Made by a program: the position numbers and the translations under genes. From positions 6,308-70,307 of the forward strand of contig CALCYT010000040.1 of assembly GCA_937906455.1 (NCBI GenBank): DNA of 64,000 bases, given 5' to 3'. Positions 1-60,063 of the stretch are shown piece after piece. The notes under the pieces are model-generated. The model saw only the letters and a program-made list of their open reading frames with translations, was not told where the DNA came from and did no database searches. Every line of letters begins with the position of its first letter. The first letter of the stretch is position 1. The stretch comes from an uncultured Bacteroidales bacterium (lineage in GTDB: Bacteria; Bacteroidota; Bacteroidia; Bacteroidales; F082).

Positions 1-2627
1 TATTGCGAATCGCGCAAGTCGCGGTTGATGAAGCCGCTCGGAATGTCAGCTTCTTTCATCAGCAGTTTGTCGTGCTTTGTCTTGCTGATAACTTTGTCAT
101 CCAACAACTTGTCAATGCGATTCTTGTAATCGCCATTGGCGAAATCTTCGCCATATTTTGTGGCTACAAAATCGAAAGCCGTAGTGTTCGACTTGTCCAG
201 ATTGGCTTGACGTGCTTCCAAAGTTTTGTTTGAGAATGAGTCGTCGAATAGTTTTGCCTGCGGAATGATATGTTCAATATCGAACTCTTTGCTGAAGAGT
301 TTTTCGCGTGGTATGTAAGTGTCGGTATAGAGTGTGTGGTAACCGTTATTCTTCAGCTCCTCATATAATTTGTAGCGAATAATGTCGTTGCGACTCACAT
401 GCGACAGACCAAATTCATTTTGCAGTTTCTTGACCAATTCCTCATGCAGACGAGTTGTTTCGTTGATAGACTTCGTGAGTTCCTCGCGCTCCTTGGCCGA
501 CTTCTTCAGTTCGCGAGCCAACTCGATACGGATTTCATCGGGTTTGCCGTATTCCTCTATGATGCCATTGACAACATTGACCATTTGGTTCAAAATCTTC
601 TCAACAACGGGGTTGCGCAGACTGTTGCGCGGAAGAAGTTCCAACTTGTCTTTCAGCACCTTGTTTTCAATCTCCTCCTTGGTGAGCGACTGCTTTGAAT
701 GGCGATAACCTGCATATTCGCAAGCCACGCTGTAGTCGTTCCCGTCTTTCAAATGCGGCAATATCTTACGTATAGCTTTGGTGCTCAGACTACTATAATC
801 GCCAGCCTCCTTGAAAACAACATTGGCAAGAACCGTTGCGTATTCCTTTTCAAAGCCAAACGTACCGTGCAACTTTTCAATCAATTTTTCATTGCCAATG
901 GATGAATTGTCACCCTCAAACGAGTACAATAGATGCCACAGTCGGAACATTGGTTGCTGCTCAAAATCTTTTCCTTCAAGGTCGGAATTGAAGGTCAGAA
1001 TGCGAGTGTCAATACCTATCGTATCGAAAATCTCAGAAATGCTTTGCTGCATTTCTTTTGCTGATTTTTTCTGTAAATCTCCCACATCGTGTCCGCTCAT
1101 TTCGGCAATGGCTTGATATGCCTTGAACAACTCGGCTTGCGTGCGGTTGCCGTCCAACTCCTTGAAGTTCATGTCAACTTCTTTCTGATGAGGGAAGAGC
1201 ATTTTCAGTGCTTCAGCCTTCGACAATTTCTCTTTGTAGTTCAACTCGGCAAAAAGAAGCTCTTTTTCTTCAGGCAACAACCAGCGCTTGCCATAATTAT
1301 AGTCTTTGGAGTATCCAAATAGGTCCTGTTGCTGATTAGGTATTATCATTCCCGACACTTCAACGTCATTCAGCCGCTGCCAAATCTTGAACTCTTGGAA
1401 CAACGGCGATGACTTTGGGCAGACACGCAATCCGATGGTTTTCTGTCTCTTCTTGCCATCGACTTCCACTTCTATTTGCCGGCTCTCGAACTCGCAGAAC
1501 GAAATCAATCCCTTTTGCGACTTGAGCGGACGCTGGTAGAAAATCACCACATCGCGAATCTCTTTCTTGAGTTCGGCGGTCAACTCCTTATGAAATCTAG
1601 CCTGCGTTTCCCAGATGGTCTCAAACTCGTTGAGGTAGTCCTGCCGATAGAAGACCTGATTCTTCAGGCTGTAGTTCGGATTCTTGTCCAACTGCGCCAT
1701 TTGGTATTGACCGACTGTCTGATGATTGAAATATAGTTCCTTGCTTCGGTCGCTGATGTTGCCGAGATAACCGCTTGCATTGCTGATTTGGCCGTTGATT
1801 TCTTGAAGTACGATAGCCAATTCCTCCAATCCAAGTTGTTCGGAAAGAGCCTTGCAACGCCATTGGAAATTTTCAATCTTCTGCTCAAAGCCTTTTGTAG
1901 TGCGTTTGATGCCGACAATGCCGAATGGTTTGGCGCAAATCGCCCATGTCTGGCTTTTGTTCTTTCCTTGCAATTCGTCTTTCAGTCCGTCAGTGAGCTG
2001 GTCGGGATAAAAATGCTTCTGTATGTTCCAAACCTTGTCGAACTCAGCCTGCAAATCGGAACGGTAGAAATCGGGAAGATACTTTTTGCCACCTTTAAGC
2101 AACTCCAGCGACAACTGACCGGGCATCAAATTCTCGTTGTAAAGGCGTTTGGCAACCTCCATGCCGTCAATCAGTTGCCCCTCCTCGGTCGATTTCGCCT
2201 TTCGGCTGCTCTTGTAGCCACGTTTCTTGTTGATTTGCAAAAGCACACGCGCAAATTCCTCCAACGAAATCTCGTCAGTGGCAGCCTTTGCACGCAATCG
2301 GTATGTCTCAAAGGTTGTGCGATTGCCATTTTCCGATAAAATGGTGTCGTTAGAGATAAAACCACTGGATTTCAGAATCTTAATTAAGTTTTCACGACGC
2401 AGCTTATAGCGTTGCAAATTGCGACGCATACTGCGTTTGAGAGTGCGGTCGGCATTAGTTGTAATGCTTTTGCCTTTTTCAAAATTAGTCAGTTCGTCAA
2501 CAGTGAGCGGATTTACCCTAACTCCCAGTTTTACGATAGACGATTGTTCGTCAGCATTTTCAGCTTCATTCACCACCGCCCAGCCGATGCTGTTGGTGCC
2601 GAGGTCTAATCCCAGAATTTTTTTCAT
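1..2627 (-). CDS. cas9: CRISPR-associated endonuclease Cas9, type II-C-like. The 5' end is complete; the 3' end is truncated by the window edge.
   Basis: I translated the minus strand by hand from the ATG at 2627. This frame is absent from the ORF track because no stop lies inside the window. It gives 875 stop-free codons: MKKILGLDLGTNSIGWAVV (RuvC-I), ADRTLKRSMRRNLQRYKLRREN (Arg-rich bridge helix), INKKRGYKSSRK, VIFYQRPLKSQKGLISFCEFE, FRLWHLLYSFEGD, SLSTKAIRKILPHLKDG, LRNPVVEKILNQM, DEIRIELARELKK (RuvC-II), EFDIEHIIPQAKLFDDSFSNKTLE..ANLDKSN (HNH). The last residues, FINRDLRDSQ, mark the start of RuvC-III. Confidence 0.93.
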   Translation of the reverse strand, partial: MKKILGLDLGTNSIGWAVVNEAENADEQSSIVKLGVRVNPLTVDELTNFEKGKSITTNADRTLKRSMRRNLQRYKLRRENLIKILKSSGFISNDTILSENGNRTTFETYRLRAKAATDEISLEEFARVLLQINKKRGYKSSRKAKSTEEGQLIDGMEVAKRLYNENLMPGQLSLELLKGGKKYLPDFYRSDLQAEFDKVWNIQKHFYPDQLTDGLKDELQGKNKSQTWAICAKPFGIVGIKRTTKGFEQKIENFQWRCKALSEQLGLEELAIVLQEINGQISNASGYLGNISDRSKELYFNHQTVGQYQMAQLDKNPNYSLKNQVFYRQDYLNEFETIWETQARFHKELTAELKKEIRDVVIFYQRPLKSQKGLISFCEFESRQIEVEVDGKKRQKTIGLRVCPKSSPLFQEFKIWQRLNDVEVSGMIIPNQQQDLFGYSKDYNYGKRWLLPEEKELLFAELNYKEKLSKAEALKMLFPHQKEVDMNFKELDGNRTQAELFKAYQAIAEMSGHDVGDLQKKSAKEMQQSISEIFDTIGIDTRILTFNSDLEGKDFEQQPMFRLWHLLYSFEGDNSSIGNEKLIEKLHGTFGFEKEYATVLANVVFKEAGDYSSLSTKAIRKILPHLKDGNDYSVACEYAGYRHSKQSLTKEEIENKVLKDKLELLPRNSLRNPVVEKILNQMVNVVNGIIEEYGKPDEIRIELARELKKSAKEREELTKSINETTRLHEELVKKLQNEFGLSHVSRNDIIRYKLYEELKNNGYHTLYTDTYIPREKLFSKEFDIEHIIPQAKLFDDSFSNKTLEARQANLDKSNTTAFDFVATKYGEDFANGDYKNRIDKLLDDKVISKTKHDKLLMKEADIPSGFINRDLRDSQ

Positions 2628-2653: not shown

Positions 2654-2661
2654 CAAAAATA
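2654..2661 (-). promoter_or_regulatory. Bacteroidota -7 box (TATTTTTG) for cas9
   Basis: The minus strand reads TATTTTTG, matching TAnnTTTG, about 26 nt upstream of the cas9 ATG. Confidence 0.5.
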
Positions 2662-2692: not shown

Positions 2693-2703
2693 AAAAAATA
2701 TTG

Positions 2704-2711
2704 TATTTTTG
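2704..2711 (+). promoter_or_regulatory. Bacteroidota -7 box (TATTTTTG) for the candidate tracrRNA
   Basis: gTATTTTTGcagaac matches TAnnTTTG. The same extended context (tatttttgcagaac) precedes glmM on the minus strand near 54230. Confidence 0.55.
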
Positions 2712-2716
2712 CAGAA

Positions 2717-2798
2717 CAAATTTTGAAGCAATTCACAATAAGGATTATTCCGTTGTGAAAACATTAAGGCCGCCCTCGTCCTCAACGGGGGCTCTTTT
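2717..2798 (+). ncRNA. Candidate tracrRNA (~80 nt), divergent from cas9
   Basis: The expected TSS lies a few nt after the -7 box. Putative anti-repeat: 2715-2738 aacaaattttgaagcaattcacaa. Nexus-like element: AAGGATTATTCCGTT at 2740-2754, compared from memory with S. pyogenes AAGGCUAGUCCGUU. A 7-bp GC hairpin plus TCTTTT ends it at 2772-2798. No + strand CDS exists here that would need this promoter or terminator. Confidence 0.6.
2772..2798 (+). terminator. Intrinsic terminator (3' end of the candidate tracrRNA)
   Basis: The stem gccctcg (2772-2778) pairs with cgggggc (2786-2792), including one G-U pair. The loop is the 7-nt tcctcaa, followed by tctttt. Confidence 0.6.
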
Positions 2799-2800
2799 AC

Positions 2801-2821
2801 TCTAAGGTCTAAAGTCTAAAG
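2801..2821 (+). repeat. Heptamer tandem repeat (TCTAAAG)x3 overlapping the nnr stop codon
   Basis: tctaagg tctaaag tctaaag. On the minus strand it encodes the last residues ALDFRP and the TAG stop of nnr. Confidence 0.85.
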
Positions 2822-4295
2822 CCTTCACAATATCCCTCGCAATCACACTCTCCATTCCCCTCATTTCCGCTGCCTTGTCGCCTGCCCTGCCGTGCATGAA
2901 AACGCCGATAACTGCTGCCTCTTCGGGTGTATAACGTTGCGCTAAAAGCGACAAAATGATGCCCGTCAAGACATCGCCGCTGCCTGCCGTCGCCATGCCG
3001 GGATTGCCGGTAGAGTTGAAGAAACATGCCCCGTTGGGGAATGTTATTGAGGTGTTGGCTCCTTTCAAAACGATTATAATGTTGTATCTTTGCGACATTT
3101 CTCGTTGAAGCTCAATACGTTGCATAGAGTTATCGGTCTTCCCGAACAAACGCTCGAACTCCTTCGGATGCGGCGTTATAATCGTGCGCTCAGGCAAAAA
3201 CGCAAGCCACGTCTTGTTTTCAGAGATGATATTCAATGCGTCAGCATCAAGCACTAACGGTACTTTTACATCTTGAATCAGACGTTTCAAGGCCTTGGCT
3301 GTCTCATCGGCTTTCCCAAGACCCGGACCAGCTCCTATCGCGTTAAATGACTGTAAATCTGGCACTTGCGAGAAACAGTTTTCCGATTCATCAAGGCTTG
3401 TCATGGCTTCCGGAAGATAAATCTGCAATGGCAGCGTCGCCGCTTTCGGCAGATGTGTCGTCAACAGCCCGACACCCGACCGCATACATGCTTCGGAGGC
3501 GAGAAGCGCGGCACCTGTCTTGCCGGTGGAGCCGGCAATCAACAAGGCGTGTCCGTAAGTGCCTTTGTGTGAATGCTTTCCGCGTTTATGCAGCAATGGC
3601 ATTACGACATCTGCCGTGGTGTAAAAATTTTGCGTCTCCACTTTCTCAATGAAATCAGGATGGATTTTTATGTCGAGGACTTCCCATTTACCCACAAAAG
3701 GCTCGTTCTCGGGATAAAAAAACGCCATCTTCGGAAACTGCATCGACAGGGTGTAATCGGGTTTGAAAATGACGCTGCCCGCATTGACAGCATCGCCGTT
3801 TAACCCTGACGCTATGTCAATTGCGATTCTAATAGCTTGATTATCATTAATATGACTAATCATATCAGCCGCCAAACCTTCTAATGGCCGCGACAGTCCG
3901 GAGCCGAACAAAGCGTCGATCACAATGTCATTATCCGAGATTTTCGGAAAATCGTCTTTAGAGAAGATGCCAAACATCGGGACCTCGGGAATCTCTTTCA
4001 GACGTTCGTAATTAGCCTCGCAATCGTCACTGAAACGCTCACTAACATGGGCGATAAACACTTGAGCGTAAATGTCTTGCGTGGCGAGAAGCCGCGCCAA
4101 GGCAAGCCCGTCGCCACCATTGTTGCCCATGCCGCAGAAAATTTTTATCGACACTTCCTTTGATTTTATTTTCCTCATCAGCCAGAAATAAATCTGTGTG
4201 GCGGCGCGTTCCATCAAATCGACAGACGAAACAGGCTCAGTATCAATGGTATAGGCATCGGCCTCACGCGCGGATTTAATGTTCGGAATCTTCAT
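2802..4295 (-). CDS. nnr: Bifunctional NAD(P)H-hydrate repair enzyme (epimerase / ADP-dependent dehydratase)
   Basis: 497 aa. YjeF-N motif GMGNNGGDGLALARLL. Carbohydrate-kinase half with HKGTYGHALLIAGS and GSGDVLTGII. Confidence 0.9.
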   Translation of the reverse strand: MKIPNIKSAREADAYTIDTEPVSSVDLMERAATQIYFWLMRKIKSKEVSIKIFCGMGNNGGDGLALARLLATQDIYAQVFIAHVSERFSDDCEANYERLKEIPEVPMFGIFSKDDFPKISDNDIVIDALFGSGLSRPLEGLAADMISHINDNQAIRIAIDIASGLNGDAVNAGSVIFKPDYTLSMQFPKMAFFYPENEPFVGKWEVLDIKIHPDFIEKVETQNFYTTADVVMPLLHKRGKHSHKGTYGHALLIAGSTGKTGAALLASEACMRSGVGLLTTHLPKAATLPLQIYLPEAMTSLDESENCFSQVPDLQSFNAIGAGPGLGKADETAKALKRLIQDVKVPLVLDADALNIISENKTWLAFLPERTIITPHPKEFERLFGKTDNSMQRIELQREMSQRYNIIIVLKGANTSITFPNGACFFNSTGNPGMATAGSGDVLTGIILSLLAQRYTPEEAAVIGVFMHGRAGDKAAEMRGMESVIARDIVKALDFRP

Positions 4296-4348: not shown

Positions 4349-4379
4349 TCTAAAGTCTGACCTCTAAACTCTAAAGTCT
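4349..4379 (+). repeat. Degenerate heptamer tandem repeat (TCTAAAG-like x4) in the nnr/rlmD divergent promoter region
   Basis: tctaaag tctgacc tctaaac tctaaag tct. Confidence 0.8.
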
Positions 4380-12735: not shown

Positions 12736-14081
12736 AAGCATTCAAGGCATACGACATCAGAGGTGTCTGGGGTACCGACCTCAACGAGGAGATAGCATAC
12801 AGAATAGGTTATTTTCTTCCGGAAGTGTTGCCCGCCAAGACTTTTTTGGTGGGCAGAGACATGCGGCTGTCGTCAGACTCAGCCTTCGCTCAGCTGACTA
12901 AAGGTCTTAACGACCGTGGCGTCAATGTTGACAGCGTGGGACTCTCCACTACCCCGCTAATATATTGGACTACAGCGAGATACGGCTATGATGCCTCGGT
13001 GATGATTACAGCGTCGCATAACCCGTCGAACCATAACGGGTTTAAAATCAGCGCGAGAGATGCTAAACCTGTTGGCTATGACACCGGACTGAACAAACTT
13101 GAGAAACTTGTTGAATCGGACAAAAAAACCGTTGTGGCGGCACAAAGAGGCATTACAAAAGACATCAACGTATATGCACAATATGTTGATTTTCAGACAC
13201 AGTTTCTTGGTGACATCACTAATTTGAAAGTCGCCGTCGATTGCAGCAACGGAGCCGCCAATATATTCATCAAACAATTGCTTGGCGACACACCTAATTA
13301 TATTAATGACACTCTCGACGGCCGCTTCCCCGGGCATGAGCCAAACCCGTTAGAGGCTGAAAATCAAGAACAAATCAAGGAAATGGTGCTGAGACATAAA
13401 TGTGATATCGGTCTCCTTTTCGATGGTGACGCCGACCGCATCACATTCATTGACGAGAAGGGACAGTTCATCTCTCCTGACCTGATTATCGCTTTCTTAG
13501 GTAATTATTTCCTTGGCGAGAAAAAACAGAAAGGCATTGTGCTTCAAGACATTAGGTCGTCAAGAGCCATCCAGGAATATCTCGGGAGGCTCTATGGTGC
13601 CAAGGTCGAGACATGGCGTGTGGGACGCGCCTATGCAGCCCTGAAACTCCGTGAGCTCGACGGATGCTTTGGAGGCGAGCTGGCCGGACATTATTACTTC
13701 CGCGACTTCTACTACTCTGATTCAGGAATAATGGCAGCCATGTTAGTGCTACGATTGTTGTCGCAATTCAAGGCGAATGGTCAATGTATGTCGCAGATTA
13801 TCAAAGAAATATCACCTTATCACAACTCCGGCGAGATTAATTTCACAATAGAGAGGAAAAAAGAAGCCATGGATGCCGTGCGCGATTATTTCATGAGTGT
13901 CGAGACACCTGAACGTTTCCTCGATTTCGACGGCTATCGTCTTGATTATCATGACTGGTGGCTTAACATCCGTCCCTCGAACACTGAACCATATTTGAGA
14001 TTTTTAGCTGAAGCAAAGTCGGAGGAGAAGTTGAATGAAATTGTGAAAACGGTGAGGGGATTGTTAGCCATTAGCCATTAG
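12732..14081 (+). CDS. Phosphomannomutase/phosphoglucomutase (alpha-D-phosphohexomutase family)
   Basis: 449 aa. Active-site loop TASHNPSNHNGFK and Mg loop FDGDADR. The C-terminal AISH and its stop are encoded by the TTAGCCA repeat. Confidence 0.88.
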   Translation: MKAFKAYDIRGVWGTDLNEEIAYRIGYFLPEVLPAKTFLVGRDMRLSSDSAFAQLTKGLNDRGVNVDSVGLSTTPLIYWTTARYGYDASVMITASHNPSNHNGFKISARDAKPVGYDTGLNKLEKLVESDKKTVVAAQRGITKDINVYAQYVDFQTQFLGDITNLKVAVDCSNGAANIFIKQLLGDTPNYINDTLDGRFPGHEPNPLEAENQEQIKEMVLRHKCDIGLLFDGDADRITFIDEKGQFISPDLIIAFLGNYFLGEKKQKGIVLQDIRSSRAIQEYLGRLYGAKVETWRVGRAYAALKLRELDGCFGGELAGHYYFRDFYYSDSGIMAAMLVLRLLSQFKANGQCMSQIIKEISPYHNSGEINFTIERKKEAMDAVRDYFMSVETPERFLDFDGYRLDYHDWWLNIRPSNTEPYLRFLAEAKSEEKLNEIVKTVRGLLAISH

Positions 14082-14102
14082 CCATTAGCCATTAGCGATT
14101 AG
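14064..14102 (+). repeat. Heptamer tandem repeat (TTAGCCA)x4, then TTAGCGA and TTAG
   Basis: ttagcca ttagcca ttagcca ttagcca ttagcga ttag. It spans the stop codon of the phosphohexomutase gene. Confidence 0.9.
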
Positions 14103-14121: not shown

Positions 14122-15027
14122 ATGAAAAAAATCACTGTTATATTATTGATTTTCAGTACATTATATGTATCGGCACAAGATACTCTGAGAGACGACGCGC
14201 GCGTGAGGAGGAATGTGAGCATTGTGCTTGGCACAGAGGCGGCATTGTATGCCGCGTCCATGACAGGGCTTTATTTCGCATGGTATGCCGACTATCCTCA
14301 ATCAAAATTCCATTTCTACAACGACAATGGCGAGTGGCTGCAGATGGATAAAATCGGACATGGGACGACATCGTATCTCGTTGGTTTATATGGCTATGAG
14401 CTGCTTCGTCATGCAGGTCTCGATGAGCGACGTTCCATATGGTTTGGAGGTACTTTGGGCTTGATTTTCCTCACAAGTGTGGAGGTTTTCGACGGTTTTT
14501 CCGACGGATGGGGCTTCTCTTGGGGCGACATGGCTGCCAACACCTTAGGCTCGGCCATGTTCATCGGTCAACAGTTGCTCTGGCATGAACAACGTGTCAC
14601 CTTGAAATACTCATTCCATACTACAGAGTTTCCGGATTATCGTCCGGATTTGTTAGGGTCAAATTTGATTCAACAAACGATAAAAGACTATAACGGACAG
14701 ACTTATTGGGCTTCATTTAATATCAAGTCGTTGTTTCTCAATAAGGAAAGCAAATTCCCTGCGTGGCTGAACATCGCCGTGGGCTATGGTGCCACCGGCA
14801 TGACAGGTGCTTTCGACAACACGTTGGAACACAATGGAGAACCTATCCCACACTATGACAGAGTCCGACAGCTCTATCTCTCTCCCGACATCGATTTCAC
14901 GAGAATCCCGACAAACAATAAATTTTTAAAATATACGTTTAAAGTATTGAATATCTTCAAGATGCCGCTTCCTGCGATAGAATATAACTCGAAAGGAGAT
15001 TTTGCGTGGCATTGGATTTATTTTTAG
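14122..15027 (+). CDS. Signal-peptide protein, possibly DUF2279-like
   Basis: 301 aa. The N-terminal signal peptide is MKKITVILLIFSTLYVSAQ. The family name is recalled from the motif context MDKIGHG and is only tentative. Confidence 0.6.
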   Translation: MKKITVILLIFSTLYVSAQDTLRDDARVRRNVSIVLGTEAALYAASMTGLYFAWYADYPQSKFHFYNDNGEWLQMDKIGHGTTSYLVGLYGYELLRHAGLDERRSIWFGGTLGLIFLTSVEVFDGFSDGWGFSWGDMAANTLGSAMFIGQQLLWHEQRVTLKYSFHTTEFPDYRPDLLGSNLIQQTIKDYNGQTYWASFNIKSLFLNKESKFPAWLNIAVGYGATGMTGAFDNTLEHNGEPIPHYDRVRQLYLSPDIDFTRIPTNNKFLKYTFKVLNIFKMPLPAIEYNSKGDFAWHWIYF

Positions 15028-15056
15028 GTATGCTTTTGATTTAAAAGGTAGATATT

Positions 15057-15476
15057 ATGAAAAAGACATTGTTTTTTACAAGTTTGACGGCATTGTTTCT
15101 GATGCTCAGTTGCGGTCCCAATCCGGAAAAATCGAGGCTTTATCTTGACAAAGGCATTGATTATCTTTTTGCTTCGCAGTTTGACGAGGCCATAGGGTTT
15201 TTCGACAAGGCCATCGAGTGTGATGAGACCAACTTTGAGGCTTATTATTATCGCGGATGCGCTTACAGCAACAATTTCAGGAACGATATGGCATTGAAGG
15301 ACTGGAACAAGGCAATCGAGCTAAAACCCGACTACCCCAATCCATATTTCAACATCGGATTGATTTACAAAATGCACAACGACAACTCTATGGCGTGTTA
15401 TTATTTCAAATTAGCCGAAAAATATGGTCGTGAGAATATGACAGATTACGTGAAATTTTGCGATTATTACGAGTGA
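15057..15476 (+). CDS. TPR-repeat lipoprotein
   Basis: 139 aa. Lipobox LMLSC. TPR-like AYYYRGCAY / NKAIELKPDY. Confidence 0.75.
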   Translation: MKKTLFFTSLTALFLMLSCGPNPEKSRLYLDKGIDYLFASQFDEAIGFFDKAIECDETNFEAYYYRGCAYSNNFRNDMALKDWNKAIELKPDYPNPYFNIGLIYKMHNDNSMACYYFKLAEKYGRENMTDYVKFCDYYE

Positions 15477-16131: not shown

Positions 16132-16899
16132 CTATTTTATCACCTTGTAAATCAGCTCCTCTCCGGGACGGGCGAGTCGCATGCGTCGCCGTTGCTCATC
16201 AGAGAGTTCGTAATAAATCCTGTCGGCATCGACGGTGAAGCCGGCTTTTTCCAGCACTTGCGCATAGTCACGGCCGAACTGCCTGACATGGTCGTATTGC
16301 CCGAAACAGCGTTTGCGTTCTTCAGGGTCAGTGATCGTAAGGTCTTCCCAGGTGTCAACATCAGGATTTATCGGGACCATCAGTATCGCCCAGCCGCCGG
16401 GTTTCATGACGCGTTTTATCTCAGAAAAAGCCTTGTTGACATCATCGACATGCTCCAGCACATGGTTGCAAATCACCACATCATATTGATTATCAGGCAA
16501 ATTGATATGTGTCACATCGAGATGAAGGTCTGCTATTGGCGAATCGAGGTCGGCGGTGGTGTAATCGAGGTTTTTCAGGGTTTTAAAGCGTTTAATGAAG
16601 GGCTGTTCAGGCGCGAAATGCAACACCTTCAGATTATCGGTGAAAAATCCTGTTTTCTCGTGAAGATACAGCCAAAGCAGACGATGACGCTCAAGCGACA
16701 GACATCGCGGACACATACGGTTTGCCATCGCCACTCCGTAACCGTAAGGCAAAAACTTCCGGAAATGTCCGCCACACACCGGACATTCCACCTTGTCACC
16801 GATGTAAAACGGACGTATCAGGAAACTGAACAGCCCGCTGAGGCGAATCAGCGTCTGACGCGGGAAAATCCTTGTAAATAAAGCGATTAACTTTTTCAT
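16132..16899 (-). CDS. Class I SAM-dependent methyltransferase with an N-terminal Cys4 motif
   Basis: I prefer the start MKKLIALF at 16899, which overlaps the upstream stop (ATGA). CPVCGG..CPRC, then VLHFAPE and DVVICNHVLEHV. Confidence 0.78.
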   Translation of the reverse strand: MKKLIALFTRIFPRQTLIRLSGLFSFLIRPFYIGDKVECPVCGGHFRKFLPYGYGVAMANRMCPRCLSLERHRLLWLYLHEKTGFFTDNLKVLHFAPEQPFIKRFKTLKNLDYTTADLDSPIADLHLDVTHINLPDNQYDVVICNHVLEHVDDVNKAFSEIKRVMKPGGWAILMVPINPDVDTWEDLTITDPEERKRCFGQYDHVRQFGRDYAQVLEKAGFTVDADRIYYELSDEQRRRMRLARPGEELIYKVIK

Positions 16900-18020
16900 A
16901 GTAATTCTCTTAAGGCAGCGGTCATACTTGACCATGTATATTTCTTTTTTTCGTCACGAACACCTTCCGCAAAGACATCGTATCTGACGTTTTCATAAAA
17001 ATCAACGAGAGCGTCGGCTATCGCAATGGGCTGAGGCTCAACAACATATCCTACTTTGCCGTTGGGGATGATTTCCTTCAGTCCGCCGACATCAGTCACA
17101 AGAACCGGTCTCTCGAAATGATAAGCCACCTGTGTCACACCACTTTGCGTTGACGATTTATAAGGCTGCACGATAATATCAGCAGCATTAAAGTAATACT
17201 TTACATCAATATCGCTAATATATTTATTTTCAATTATAACCAATTCATTCAGCCCATGTTGTCCAATCTGTTGGAGATAAGGCTTAGGGTCATCGTAAAA
17301 CTCACCGGCGACAATCAGTTTCACCTTGTGTTTGCGAAGCCGCTCGTCAGCAAAAGCGTCGATGAGAAGGTCAAGGCCTTTGTATGCGCGCACGAGACCG
17401 AAAAACAGCATATAACTATAACTTTCGTCGAGATTAAGATGTCTTATCGCCACCGTTCTGTCCATCGTCTCTCCATAGTGGTCGTACAACGGATGTGGTA
17501 CGAAACACTTAGGTTTATCTTGATTGTCAAGCGATTTCACATCATCAAGAACCGACTGTGACAGTGCCACGAAGCCATCCATTGACTTCACAAAATATGG
17601 AGGCAGAATCTTGTCGAGAATCGATTTCTCATGTGGTATCATATTGTGTATCAATCCAATACACTTCGTATGACGGTTCTTCTTTATCAATCGCGCTATC
17701 TTGCCGAAACATGGAGCGAAGAACGACATCCAATAGGTGAAAACCACGATATCGGGATTCTTCTTGCGTAACTCCTTCCCCACTTTTATCCAGTTCAACG
17801 GATTGACACTGTTCACTTTACGTGAAATCTCAAAGCCTTGCGGAGCTTTGGCGTCAGAATATTGCGTCTTACCCGGAAAAAGGAATGAAGGATACTGAAG
17901 CTTAAACGTAACCACTTCAATATCAACACCTTCCCTGACAAACTCCGTAGCAAGTCTGTCGGTGAAAGCCGCAATCCCTCCACGATAAGGATACGAAGAA
18001 CCCACAATGACAATCTTCAT
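16896..18020 (-). CDS. Glycosyltransferase family 4 (GT-B fold)
   Basis: 374 aa. C-terminal E-x7-E-like region (QPYKSSTQSGVTQVAYHFERPVLVTDVGGLKE). Confidence 0.8.
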   Translation of the reverse strand: MKIVIVGSSYPYRGGIAAFTDRLATEFVREGVDIEVVTFKLQYPSFLFPGKTQYSDAKAPQGFEISRKVNSVNPLNWIKVGKELRKKNPDIVVFTYWMSFFAPCFGKIARLIKKNRHTKCIGLIHNMIPHEKSILDKILPPYFVKSMDGFVALSQSVLDDVKSLDNQDKPKCFVPHPLYDHYGETMDRTVAIRHLNLDESYSYMLFFGLVRAYKGLDLLIDAFADERLRKHKVKLIVAGEFYDDPKPYLQQIGQHGLNELVIIENKYISDIDVKYYFNAADIIVQPYKSSTQSGVTQVAYHFERPVLVTDVGGLKEIIPNGKVGYVVEPQPIAIADALVDFYENVRYDVFAEGVRDEKKKYTWSSMTAALRELL

Positions 18021-18040
18021 CTATTTTGTTTTTAAAATCT

Positions 18041-18096
18041 TTACTCCTTACTCTCAACTTTCAACTCTCCACTCTCAGCACTCTTCTCCACAACTT
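18041..18096 (+). repeat. Period-7 repeat (YNACTCT x ~8) containing the reverse complement of the core TGAGAGTGGAGAG
   Basis: ttactcc ttactct caacttt caactct ccactct cagcact cttctcc acaactt. It encodes the C-terminal tail VEKSAESGELKVESKE and the stop of the HMA protein on the minus strand. Confidence 0.8.
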
Positions 18097-18364
18097 TCGC
18101 CTTATACCCTATTTTCTCAAATGCCTTTTGAAGCTTTTCGATGTCTGTCTTCTCGCTATCATATTGAATTGTAACGAGTTTTGTCTTCAAATCAGGGTTG
18201 ATAGCCTTAACACCTTTTTCAAAACGGATGTTGTTTTTGATGCGGTTCACGCAGCTTTCGCAGTGCATCTCAGGCTCTGTTGAGAACACCACTTCTTTCT
18301 TTGTCTGAGCGTTTGCCAAGACAGCCATAAACATCGCGAACACTAATAAAACTAATTTTTTCAT
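18041..18364 (-). CDS. Secreted heavy-metal-associated (HMA) domain protein
   Basis: 107 aa. Signal peptide MKKLVLLVFAMFMAVLANAQ and metal-binding MHCESC (MxCxxC). Confidence 0.82.
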   Translation of the reverse strand: MKKLVLLVFAMFMAVLANAQTKKEVVFSTEPEMHCESCVNRIKNNIRFEKGVKAINPDLKTKLVTIQYDSEKTDIEKLQKAFEKIGYKAKVVEKSAESGELKVESKE

Positions 18365-18371
18365 ATTGTTG

Positions 18372-20522
18372 TCATTTTGTCATTTTCCATTTTACTCCCG
18401 CATACACCATGATGCCGTCAATCGGACCCCAGATCATCGTGGCGTCGAAGTTGTCGCCCCAAGGGTCATGACAGCCAACGATAGGGTTTTTCTGTTTGAA
18501 ACTTGTGAGATTCTCCCCACCCACATAGATGTTACCCCAGCGGAACCATTTGGTTATCTGTGCGTTAAGAATCTGATAAGGTTTAAAATCGCCGTATGGC
18601 TCCGGCATTCTGCCTCCGCCGTTTAACTGCAATGTGACGTCGAACTGCCATATCTCAAGCGGGGTTTTGTACGAAGCCGTCAGCAAGCCTTTGTAACGAC
18701 TTGTCAAAGGCTTCTCCCGAAGCATCCCGTTGATAGTTGTACGCACATCGTTGAGTCTGAAAGCTACCAAGAGTGAGAAGCCCTCGAAAAACGGGTATTT
18801 CGCATCGATTTGCAGCGTATGCGAGAACGATTTTCCGTCAAGGTTGTAAAAACGCACCTCGTGAGCATCACTGTCGAGGTCGGTGACGACCTGATTCATG
18901 AAATCGGTGTAAAAATATTCCACGTTGATATTCAAATCCTTATGAAAGATTTCAAAGTCAAGAGACACACTTGCGCCATAGTTCCACGCCTCCTCCTGTT
19001 TCAGATTGTCGTCAACAATTATTTGACGGCTACTTGCCAAAAGGTTGTGGTTCTCGAGCATAGGGCGTGACGTACGATAGCCTTTACCTGCCGAAAGACG
19101 CAGTTTCAGGTGCTCATCGACAGTCCATTTTGCATGGGTGCGAGGTGTGAAAAATGCACCATAAATATCGCTGTAATCACCACGAAAACCTGCCATAAGC
19201 ACAAGTTTCTCGTCGAGGTTGAAAGTGTATTGCGCATAGGCACCGCCCACGTTTTCGTCATTCAGGATGTCAAACCCATCATGATTGAACGACAATCCTG
19301 CCGAGAGGTTGTGCCGCGGCGTGAAATCGGTCTCGAAAAGCAGCTGCGCGTATGCGTTGTTCTCTTCAACGTCGTATCGCCTCAAACCATACAACGCATT
19401 CATATTATGATACGAACCCGACAAAATCAGAGCTACATTAGTGTTGTGCGCGTCGTCGATTATGAAGGCGTTTTTCAAAAATCCTTCATAGCGTTCCGTC
19501 CCGATATCTATCCTATACAATTGATTGTCAATGAGTAAGGTTTTAGAATGATTATGTGCGTCCTCCATCTGACCGCCTGTCCTGTCTTCTTTCAAGGCTT
19601 TCACGGCGGCTTGCATTATATAATGGGGTGTACGGTACATCCAACGGTTCATCACGTCAAACTGCTGTACTTTCGGCATATCCATGAAGCCGTCGCCGTT
19701 GCCGTCATGCTCAAGGAAGGCATTCTCGTAATGCGCTAATAATCCGCTACTTAGCTTGTCATTAAGATGCAGGTTCCCTTCAATATTCGACTCAAGTTTC
19801 AGCCGGCTGTCGAGATAAAGATTCACATCGAGTGTCTCTTCCGACTGAGGCTTAAGGTATTCCACATTGATTTGTCCTGTCACCGACTCATAGCCGTTTT
19901 TCACTGTGGCGGCGCCTTTCGACACCTGTATCGACTGCATCCAGGGTCCCGGTATATAGCCGAGCGCAAATGGTGCTGCGGCGCCTCTGAATGCCGGCAC
20001 ATTCTCCGTCATCATCTGCACGTAAGTGCCTGACAATCCGAGGAGTCTTATCTGTTTGGCACCGGTGGCGGCATCGGTGTAGTTCACGTCAACAGATGGG
20101 TTGGTGGTGAAGCTCTCGCCGAGGTTGCAGCAGGCGGCGCGCACCAACTCGGTGTTGGAAATTATCTCGATATTCTGGGCTCCTTTTGCTTTCATAATGC
20201 CCGGTCGCGAGGCTTTCACAACAACATCGTCCAAGTCAACGCCGGCAATCATCGTAATCTCCACAAAGTCGGCGCCGTTCCATAGGGTGGTGTCGTTTTT
20301 ATAGCCTACATACGTCGTAACTATCTCGTTTACATCAGGTTGTGATTCTAAAATGAATTTACCGTCACCATCGGTCATCACGCCGATATTAGTGCCTTTC
20401 CACACAACATTGGCCGCCACAAGTGCGTTGCCTTGGGTGTCTTTGACGACTCCCATGACCTGCGCCACCGACGAAAACGCGCTCAACAAGGCGAAAACCG
20501 ATGTCAACACTGACTTTTTCAT
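18372..20522 (-). CDS. TonB-dependent receptor with an N-terminal carboxypeptidase-regulatory-like domain
   Basis: 716 aa. Signal peptide, GVVKD..G..L..ANVV CarbopepD-reg-like start, plug region, and a beta-barrel ending in an aromatic-rich C-terminus. Confidence 0.85.
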   Translation of the reverse strand: MKKSVLTSVFALLSAFSSVAQVMGVVKDTQGNALVAANVVWKGTNIGVMTDGDGKFILESQPDVNEIVTTYVGYKNDTTLWNGADFVEITMIAGVDLDDVVVKASRPGIMKAKGAQNIEIISNTELVRAACCNLGESFTTNPSVDVNYTDAATGAKQIRLLGLSGTYVQMMTENVPAFRGAAAPFALGYIPGPWMQSIQVSKGAATVKNGYESVTGQINVEYLKPQSEETLDVNLYLDSRLKLESNIEGNLHLNDKLSSGLLAHYENAFLEHDGNGDGFMDMPKVQQFDVMNRWMYRTPHYIMQAAVKALKEDRTGGQMEDAHNHSKTLLIDNQLYRIDIGTERYEGFLKNAFIIDDAHNTNVALILSGSYHNMNALYGLRRYDVEENNAYAQLLFETDFTPRHNLSAGLSFNHDGFDILNDENVGGAYAQYTFNLDEKLVLMAGFRGDYSDIYGAFFTPRTHAKWTVDEHLKLRLSAGKGYRTSRPMLENHNLLASSRQIIVDDNLKQEEAWNYGASVSLDFEIFHKDLNINVEYFYTDFMNQVVTDLDSDAHEVRFYNLDGKSFSHTLQIDAKYPFFEGFSLLVAFRLNDVRTTINGMLREKPLTSRYKGLLTASYKTPLEIWQFDVTLQLNGGGRMPEPYGDFKPYQILNAQITKWFRWGNIYVGGENLTSFKQKNPIVGCHDPWGDNFDATMIWGPIDGIMVYAGVKWKMTK

Positions 20523-49144: not shown

Positions 49145-49154
49145 AATTTTAAAG

Positions 49155-49194
49155 TTATTCAGTTGTTCAGTTGTTCAGTTGTTCAGTTAAACTG
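49155..49194 (+). repeat. Octamer tandem repeat (TTGTTCAG) x4-5 between ffh and folD
   Basis: ttattcag ttgttcag ttgttcag ttgttcag ttaaactg. Confidence 0.88.
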
Positions 49195-60025: not shown

Positions 60026-60063
60026 TAGTCTTTAGACTTTAGACGTTAGACTTTAGACGTTAG
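60026..60063 (-). repeat. Heptamer tandem repeat, (TCTAAAG)-family in inverted orientation, x5, between convergent genes
   Basis: tagtc tttagac tttagac gttagac tttagac gttag. Confidence 0.88.

Follow-up and report, generated by a model that had tools for sequence, protein, structure and literature searches.

A probable tracrRNA gene divergent from cas9 in a type II-C CRISPR-Cas locus of a rumen-type Bacteroidales bacterium

Type II CRISPR-Cas loci with unusually long repeats have been described in Bacteroidota in several surveys. Chylinski et al. (2013; PMC3737331) reported a Bacteroidetes subcluster of Cas9 with repeats of up to 48 nt, and Gasiunas et al. (2020; PMC7606464) described Cas9 orthologues of clade X with 45- to 50-bp repeats and sgRNA modules resembling those of Streptococcus pyogenes. 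Among individual members, the 47-nt-repeat II-C locus of Riemerella anatipestifer carries a 16-nt anti-repeat, TGAAAGCAATTCACAA, upstream of cas9 (PMC5006608), Flavobacterium psychrophilum has its tracrRNA upstream of cas9 (PMC10309648), and candidates across Bacteroidetes were obtained with CRISPRtracrRNA (PMC9486595). Promoters encoded within the repeats were reported for F. psychrophilum and F. columnare, and TAnnTTTG is the Bacteroidota -7 consensus (PMC10309648). For the Bacteroides fragilis member, early surveys found no anti-repeat (PMC3737331, PMC4911918).

The DNA analyzed here is a stretch of 64,000 nucleotides from an uncultured Bacteroidales bacterium (hereafter the window), for which an initial annotation had proposed a tracrRNA gene on the plus strand between cas9 and nnr. 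A tracrRNA is a small RNA that base-pairs with the CRISPR repeats and by which Cas9 is loaded with its guides. Our results support this proposal: the unit at 2704-2798 on the plus strand is very probably the tracrRNA gene of a type II-C CRISPR-Cas9 locus of a rumen-type Bacteroidales, as judged from its pairing with the CRISPR repeat of a closely related locus (L081), the recurrence of this unit ahead of cas9 in 152 of 160 related loci, and its co-variation with the repeat. The two flanking genes are both on the minus strand, with cas9 starting at 2627 by translation and continuing past the left edge of the window and nnr ending at 2802, so that the spacer covers 2628-2801 and its proposed length of 174 bp was confirmed. 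The portion of Cas9 encoded in the window carries the RuvC-I motif MKKILGLDLGTNSIGWAV at its beginning and the HNH motif DIEHIIPQAK, while the adjacent nnr is unrelated and runs convergently toward the tracrRNA 3' end. No plus-strand ORF of at least 60 aa starts in the spacer, which agrees with the earlier statement that no plus-strand coding sequence requires the promoter or the terminator, and a small plus-strand ORF was rejected as a candidate for the spacer on the same ground. The features are as follows.

1-2627, minus strand: cas9, first 875 codons, open at the left edge of the window (translation).
2654-2661, minus strand: putative cas9 promoter -7 box, TATTTTTG (sequence and motif scan).
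2704-2711, plus strand: predicted tracrRNA promoter -7 box of the TAnnTTTG type, TATTTTTG (sequence).
2716-2739, plus strand: anti-repeat, 24 nt (pairing with nt 1-25 of the 47-nt repeat of L081).
2739-2763, plus strand: conserved 25-nt core, TAAGGATTATTCCGTTGTGAAAACA, made up of a nexus-like hairpin and the linker GUUGUGAAAACA.
2772-2798, plus strand: predicted intrinsic terminator with stem 2772-2779/2785-2792, loop CCUCA and UCUUUU (terminator scan).
2802-4295, minus strand: nnr, NAD(P)H-hydrate epimerase/dehydratase (Pfam YjeF_N and Carb_kinase).

All of the sequence features listed in the initial annotation were found where it had placed them or within 1 nt. The -7 box TATTTTTG is present at 2704-2711, divergent from cas9 and at a distance of 77 nt from its ATG. 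The 24-nt segment AACAAATTTTGAAGCAATTCACAA is likewise present at 2715-2738, where it had been reported, but the pairing given below moves the anti-repeat itself to 2716-2739. The core TAAGGATTATTCCGTTGTGAAAACA is matched exactly at 2739-2763, directly after the anti-repeat, which ends in ..CACAA, and folding places in it a nexus-like hairpin formed by GGA (2742-2744), a UUAU loop and UCC (2749-2751). With up to three mismatches allowed, the 64 kb contain a single occurrence of the reverse complement of the 24-mer and a single one of the 25-nt core, in comparison to 0.00 expected from shuffled sequences. At the 3' end, the GC hairpin followed by UCUUUU at 2772-2798 was recovered as described; its arms, GCCCTCGT and ACGGGGGC, span 2772-2792, TCTTTT follows at 2793-2798, and the terminator scan reports it on the plus strand only.

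The segment AATAAGGATTATTCCGTT, located at 2737-2754 (+), had been likened to the S. pyogenes nexus, and this likeness is real but weak. The Rfam tracrRNA model RF02348 was aligned over its whole length (1-92) to 2701-2799 (+) and places its AAUAAGG..UCCGU nexus on the core, with a score of 17.5 bits (E 1.7) against a gathering threshold of 70. Because this model was built from Streptococcus-type sequences, the element would work like the RF02348 RNAs without being a member of that family. At gathering thresholds no Rfam match was obtained anywhere in the 64-kb window, and matches to ES205, Phe_leader and snoRNAs were rejected as weak, all having E values near or above 1.

A second TATTTTTG octamer was found on the minus strand (2661-2654), ending 26 nt ahead of the cas9 ATG. 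Among 124 distinct related intergenic regions, 69 have TAnnTTTG on the cas9 strand, for the most part 20 to 50 nt before the ATG, and it is plausible that the minus-strand octamer is the promoter box of cas9. The two boxes, one facing cas9 and the other facing the tracrRNA, are 42 bp apart and form a back-to-back promoter pair.

No CRISPR array was detected within the 64-kb window by Tandem Repeats Finder, and the repeat-like 24-mer is single there; as cas9 is cut by the left edge, the array is expected to lie outside the window. We therefore used the metagenome contig L081, whose Cas9 is 95% rather than 100% identical to that of the window, as a stand-in for the array. The 95% identity refers to the Cas9 N-terminus. 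Across the whole element the two cas9-nnr spacers show 100% identity, and cas9 has nnr as its neighbour in both, from which L081 can be regarded as the same locus in a close relative. The gene order in L081 is cas9 (1450 aa, with Pfam HNH_4 and RuvC_III in the full-length protein), a 289-aa Bro-N gene, cas1, cas2 and an array of 42 repeats of 47 nt (16547-19750, period 77 nt), without csn2 or cas4.

The L081 repeat in crRNA sense, i.e., on the candidate RNA strand, is GTTGTGAATTGCTTTCAAAATTTGTGTAAATTTGCATCGGAAACAAT, and its nt 1-25 are GUUGUGAAUUGCUUUCAAAAUUUGU. Repeat nt 1-12 pair with 2739-2728, U13 is bulged, and nt 14-25 pair with 2727-2716, giving 24 bp (12 + 12 bp, of which G1:U2739 is a wobble) around a one-U bulge with a duplex energy of -30.4 kcal/mol. 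The initial annotation had called for at least about 20 nt of complementarity to the repeat of the locus, and the 24 bp found with the anti-repeat at 2716-2739 exceed this; the earlier impression that the reverse complement of the segment looks like the 5' part of GTTGTG-type repeats is borne out by the same pairing with repeat nt 1-25. Folding of the duplex together with the 3' tail had also been proposed as a check. An sgRNA-like chimera consisting of repeat nt 1-25, GAAA and 2716-2798 folds as exactly the duplex, the nexus and the terminator, at -46.5 kcal/mol and a z score of -8.0 relative to shuffled sequences.

To compare the unit across related loci, we collected 160 loci by a search for Cas9 relatives, 80 from species-representative genomes and 80 from metagenomes. 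The results showed that the core TAAGGATTATTCCGTTGTGAAAACA, with up to four mismatches, is found upstream of cas9 in 152 of the 160, where the median distance to the start of cas9 is 113 nt; in 147 loci it is divergent from cas9, and five of nine loci without the core have too little upstream sequence. An identical core is shared by 132 of 151 homologues, even though Cas9 identity drops to about 60%. Of 131 distinct homologues, 121 have TAnnTTTG located 30 to 40 nt ahead of the T in TAAGG, the window's own offset being -35. The repeats are 46-48 nt long in 101 of 107 arrays of the related loci, and 100 of the 107 have a CACAAC end on the cas9 strand. Some variation in placement was also observed: the unit lies upstream on the same strand as cas9 in five loci (L013, L019, L025, L068, and L093), and it is 4.0 kb and 2.9 kb upstream of cas9 in L106 and L126, respectively, which suggests insertions between tracrRNA and cas9 in these two.

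The segment that precedes the core varies along with the repeat of its own locus. For 85 distinct pairs, the mean duplex energy was -28.4 kcal/mol with the cognate repeat in comparison to -19.8 kcal/mol with non-cognate repeats, and the cognate repeat was ranked first for 54% of the pairs and among the top two for 75%. Pairing was then analyzed position by position for 83 repeat/anti-repeat pairs. Compensatory pair types were observed at repeat nt 8 (A-U/U-A), at nt 10 (U-A/C-G/A-U) and at several positions within nt 15-23, and pairing fades past nt 24. At the 12 distal positions an average of 9.7 were paired, compared with 7.2 +/- 0.16 for shuffled partners, and a one-nucleotide bulge at repeat nt 13 was the best fit in 60 of the 83 pairs.

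For the 3' end, 120 of 128 distinct homologues have a hairpin that ends at most 2 nt from a run of at least four T; its mean energy is -13 kcal/mol. An alignment of 75 whole tracrRNAs (MAFFT and RNAalifold) recovered the invariant core helices only, with no covariation in the 3' hairpin, because the variable terminators were mis-aligned. The tails fall into two types, and the covariation analysis was redone on the 32 tails of the window's type. In these, the 7-bp terminator stem is 96.4% paired, in comparison to at most 57% for slid controls, with compensatory changes at four of the seven pairs; the covariation score was 0.428 versus 0.124 in shuffles, none of 500 of which reached 0.428. The nexus stem shows one compensatory change, A-U to G-C, in L018 (GGG..CCC), and since most of the core is invariant, covariation allows no test of the nexus beyond this one event.

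These comparisons bear directly on other explanations of the segment. In sequence the anti-repeat is similar to the repeat as read on the cas9-sense strand, and tracrRNA anti-repeats are thought to be derived from repeats, so that the segment might be a dead remnant, namely a single degenerate CRISPR repeat left next to cas9, with no transcript and no use. A remnant, however, would not hold a promoter box at the constant distance seen in 121 of the 131 homologues, would not retain an identical 25-nt core in 132 of 151 loci over such a range of Cas9 identity, and would neither preserve a co-varying terminator nor follow the repeat by compensatory changes, which makes this explanation extremely unlikely. 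We consider it just as improbable that the hairpin at 2772-2792 is merely the terminator of nnr on the minus strand and that the remainder of the unit is a chance likeness, a possibility that the initial annotation itself had raised. The nnr stop at 2802 is only 10 nt from the hairpin, and hairpins can work bidirectionally; on the minus strand, however, the hairpin is followed by GGCCTTAATGTTTTC, which has no T run, and the scan reports the plus strand only. Moreover, while the hairpin and T run follow the core in 120 of 128 homologues, nnr adjoins the element in only 1 of 122 related loci with enough flank. This last count assigns the terminator hairpin to the RNA unit rather than to nnr, and a function as nnr terminator only was rejected; stopping read-through from nnr might be an additional, secondary role.

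It could further be argued that the element is mainly a regulator of cas9, in cis or antisense, acting either as a divergent promoter or through an RNA that represses the cas9 promoter, rather than a guide scaffold. The two TATTTTTG boxes do face apart across the 42 bp, and the long form of the S. pyogenes tracrRNA represses Pcas9. The RNA predicted here, however, is directed away from cas9 and does not overlap it, and the co-variation with the repeat is what would be expected of a guide partner and not of a promoter regulator. We thus regard a mainly regulatory element as very unlikely, and a regulatory effect on cas9 could exist in addition to the tracrRNA role, not instead of it.

For the tracrRNA gene, the mechanism that we propose is as follows. 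A Bacteroidota sigma-A-type promoter with the -7 box TATTTTTG would start the RNA at about 2715-2718, a position taken from the usual spacing of the -7 box, and the RNA would stop after UCUUUU at 2798, so that it would be about 81-84 nt long and begin directly with the anti-repeat. The first 24 nt of the RNA (2716-2739) would pair with the 5' 25 nt of each crRNA repeat (GUUGUGAAUUGCUUUCAAAAUUUGU), with a single U bulged out. By analogy with solved Cas9-guide complexes, the scaffold bound by Cas9 would then comprise the bulged duplex, the nexus GGAUUAUUCC, the invariant linker GUUGUGAAAACA and the 3' hairpin, and the crRNA:tracrRNA pair would guide Cas9 to DNA. Transcription of the tracrRNA, its exact ends, its processing and its binding by Cas9 are what we infer from the features described above.

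The pairing also indicates which strand of the CRISPR array would be read as crRNA. From the orientation of the tracrRNA, the crRNA strand would be antisense to cas9, the same as that of the tracrRNA, and metatranscriptome data for the B. fragilis array agree, the crRNA being read antisense to cas9 (PMC4911918). On this strand TAnnTTTG was found in 75 of 85 distinct repeats of 46-48 nt, within nt 23-34 and starting at nt 23-27, while only one of the 85 carries it on the opposite strand. Based on this occurrence, each repeat probably drives its own crRNA, and crRNAs would probably start at the TAnnTTTG promoter within each repeat. Such an in-repeat promoter may account for the extra length of these repeats, which exceed the usual by about 11 nt.

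Two additional structures were also considered. The octamer GUUGUGAA at 2752-2759 (+) is invariant and identical to the first 8 nt of the repeat, and when the free RNA is folded, the octamer is predicted to form a helix with the proximal anti-repeat UUCACAAU (2732-2739) that encloses the nexus hairpin. All positions of this helix are invariant, which places it beyond a covariation test. If formed, it would hide the crRNA docking site until it is displaced by Cas9 or by the crRNA, and such masking would amount to a built-in conformational switch. The other structure would be a compact H-type pseudoknot between AGG (2767-2769), located before the terminator, and CCU (2780-2782) in its loop. Both trinucleotides are conserved in tails of the window's type, and of the 32 aligned tails the two with AAG (L042 and L069) are exactly the two with a CUU loop, which represents one covarying pair in two sequences, possibly of shared ancestry. 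It is unlikely that the tracrRNA carries these two features, a helix hiding the docking site and an AGG/CCU pseudoknot, neither of which has been described for this family.

Apart from the tracrRNA, an accessory gene was observed in L081 between cas9 and cas1. It is a 289-aa ORF at 14331-15200 (+) with a Bro-N domain (Pfam PF02498, E 1.8e-12), and it shares 23 nt with the end of cas9 and 8 nt with the beginning of cas1. Homologues with 69-91% identity are located just after cas9 in 11 fetched loci (L001, L003, L004, L006, L007, L013, L015, L018, L019, L027, and L085), L086 has a homologue further downstream of cas9, and weaker or partial matches to the gene were found in about 13 further loci. 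The Bro-N gene is a recurrent accessory gene of the long-repeat II-C clade. In B. fragilis, unnamed ORFs also lie between cas1 and cas9 (PMC5704556), and these, together with PcrIIC1 of CbCas9 (PMC13153721), may be compared with it.

Some short tandem repeats were also noted in the window. The heptamer TTTAGAC occurs in tandem copies at 2800-2820 (-), 4362-4375 (-) and 60031-60058 (+), with six overlapping 14-mer matches in the window in comparison to 0.19 expected. Two of these sites lie on either side of nnr. One runs into the final codons and the stop of the gene and is 2 nt away from the predicted tracrRNA 3' end, and the other is in the spacer upstream of nnr. In addition, there are short arrays of TTAGCCA (5.6 copies, 14064-14102) and of AGTTGTTC (4.5 copies, 49153-49188).

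In terms of application, the initial annotation had stated that the reading, if right, fixes the guide scaffold of this Cas9 orthologue, and this follows through: repeat nt 1-25 of L081 and the tracrRNA at 2716-2798 together would define the predicted scaffold. An sgRNA can thus be written directly as spacer, repeat nt 1-25, loop and 2716-2798. The tracrRNA, taken together with cas1, cas2 and the 42-repeat array of L081, suggests that the locus is complete and probably active. The 25-nt signature TAAGGATTATTCCGTTGTGAAAACA, derived from the 160 loci, finds the tracrRNA across the Bacteroidota long-repeat II-C clade, for which Rfam has no detecting model. It also covers the Bacteroides-type loci that were reported without an anti-repeat in the early surveys (PMC3737331, PMC4911918), and the same element is plainly seen in the Bacteroides loci L037 and L044. 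A full-text search found the exact core sequence printed in no paper, the B. fragilis repeat only being printed. The value of these results is practical and not conceptual, and the understanding of type II systems is unchanged.

Compared with the S. pyogenes tracrRNA, the tracrRNA of the window is similar in its 5' anti-repeat, the bulge in the duplex, the AAUAAGG..UCCGUU nexus and the terminator hairpin, while it differs in having one 3' hairpin instead of two, in belonging to type II-C instead of II-A, and in its Bacteroidota promoter; because the RNA probably starts at the anti-repeat, it would have no need of 5' trimming. The II-C system of Neisseria meningitidis (Zhang 2013, summarised in PMC5006608 and PMC10309648) shares the minimal cas9-cas1-cas2 set and, for most repeats here, a probable promoter in each repeat. 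The differences are that the promoter here is TAnnTTTG and not a sigma-70 -10 box, that the repeat has 47 and not 36 nt, that the place and sequence of the tracrRNA differ, and that the Cas9 here is much larger. The closest solved Cas9 structure is that of CbCas9 (PDB 8iyq, E 3.5e-60; 1442 versus 1450 aa), which is also a type II-C protein with an accessory gene in its locus and which partners with PcrIIC1 (Zhang 2024, cited in PMC13153721). CbCas9 is nevertheless a distant relative, matched over three stretches, and the accessory gene of L081 encodes a Bro-N and not a PIN domain.

The tracrRNA of the window belongs to the already described family of Bacteroidota type II-C systems with long repeats. 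Like other members of that clade, the locus, as represented by L081, has a Cas9 of roughly 1450 aa accompanied by cas1 and cas2 but not by csn2 or cas4, repeats of 46-48 nt (47 nt here) that start with GTTGTGA in crRNA sense, a tracrRNA upstream of cas9 with the modules duplex, nexus and 3' hairpin as in S. pyogenes, and an array that would be read antisense to cas9 from probable promoters inside the repeats. The likeness to Riemerella extends to the sequence itself, one extra A being the sole difference between its anti-repeat TGAAAGCAATTCACAA and window 2724-2738 (TGAAGCAATTCACAA). While the clade X orthologues typically have fully complementary duplexes (PMC7606464), the duplex here has the bulge at nt 13 that is the best fit in most pairs of the related loci. 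Relative to the long-repeat clade in general, this system is distinguished by a new host, an uncultured rumen Bacteroidales, by the locus-specific distal half of its anti-repeat, and by the single 3' hairpin of its tracrRNA, which represents one of the two tail types.
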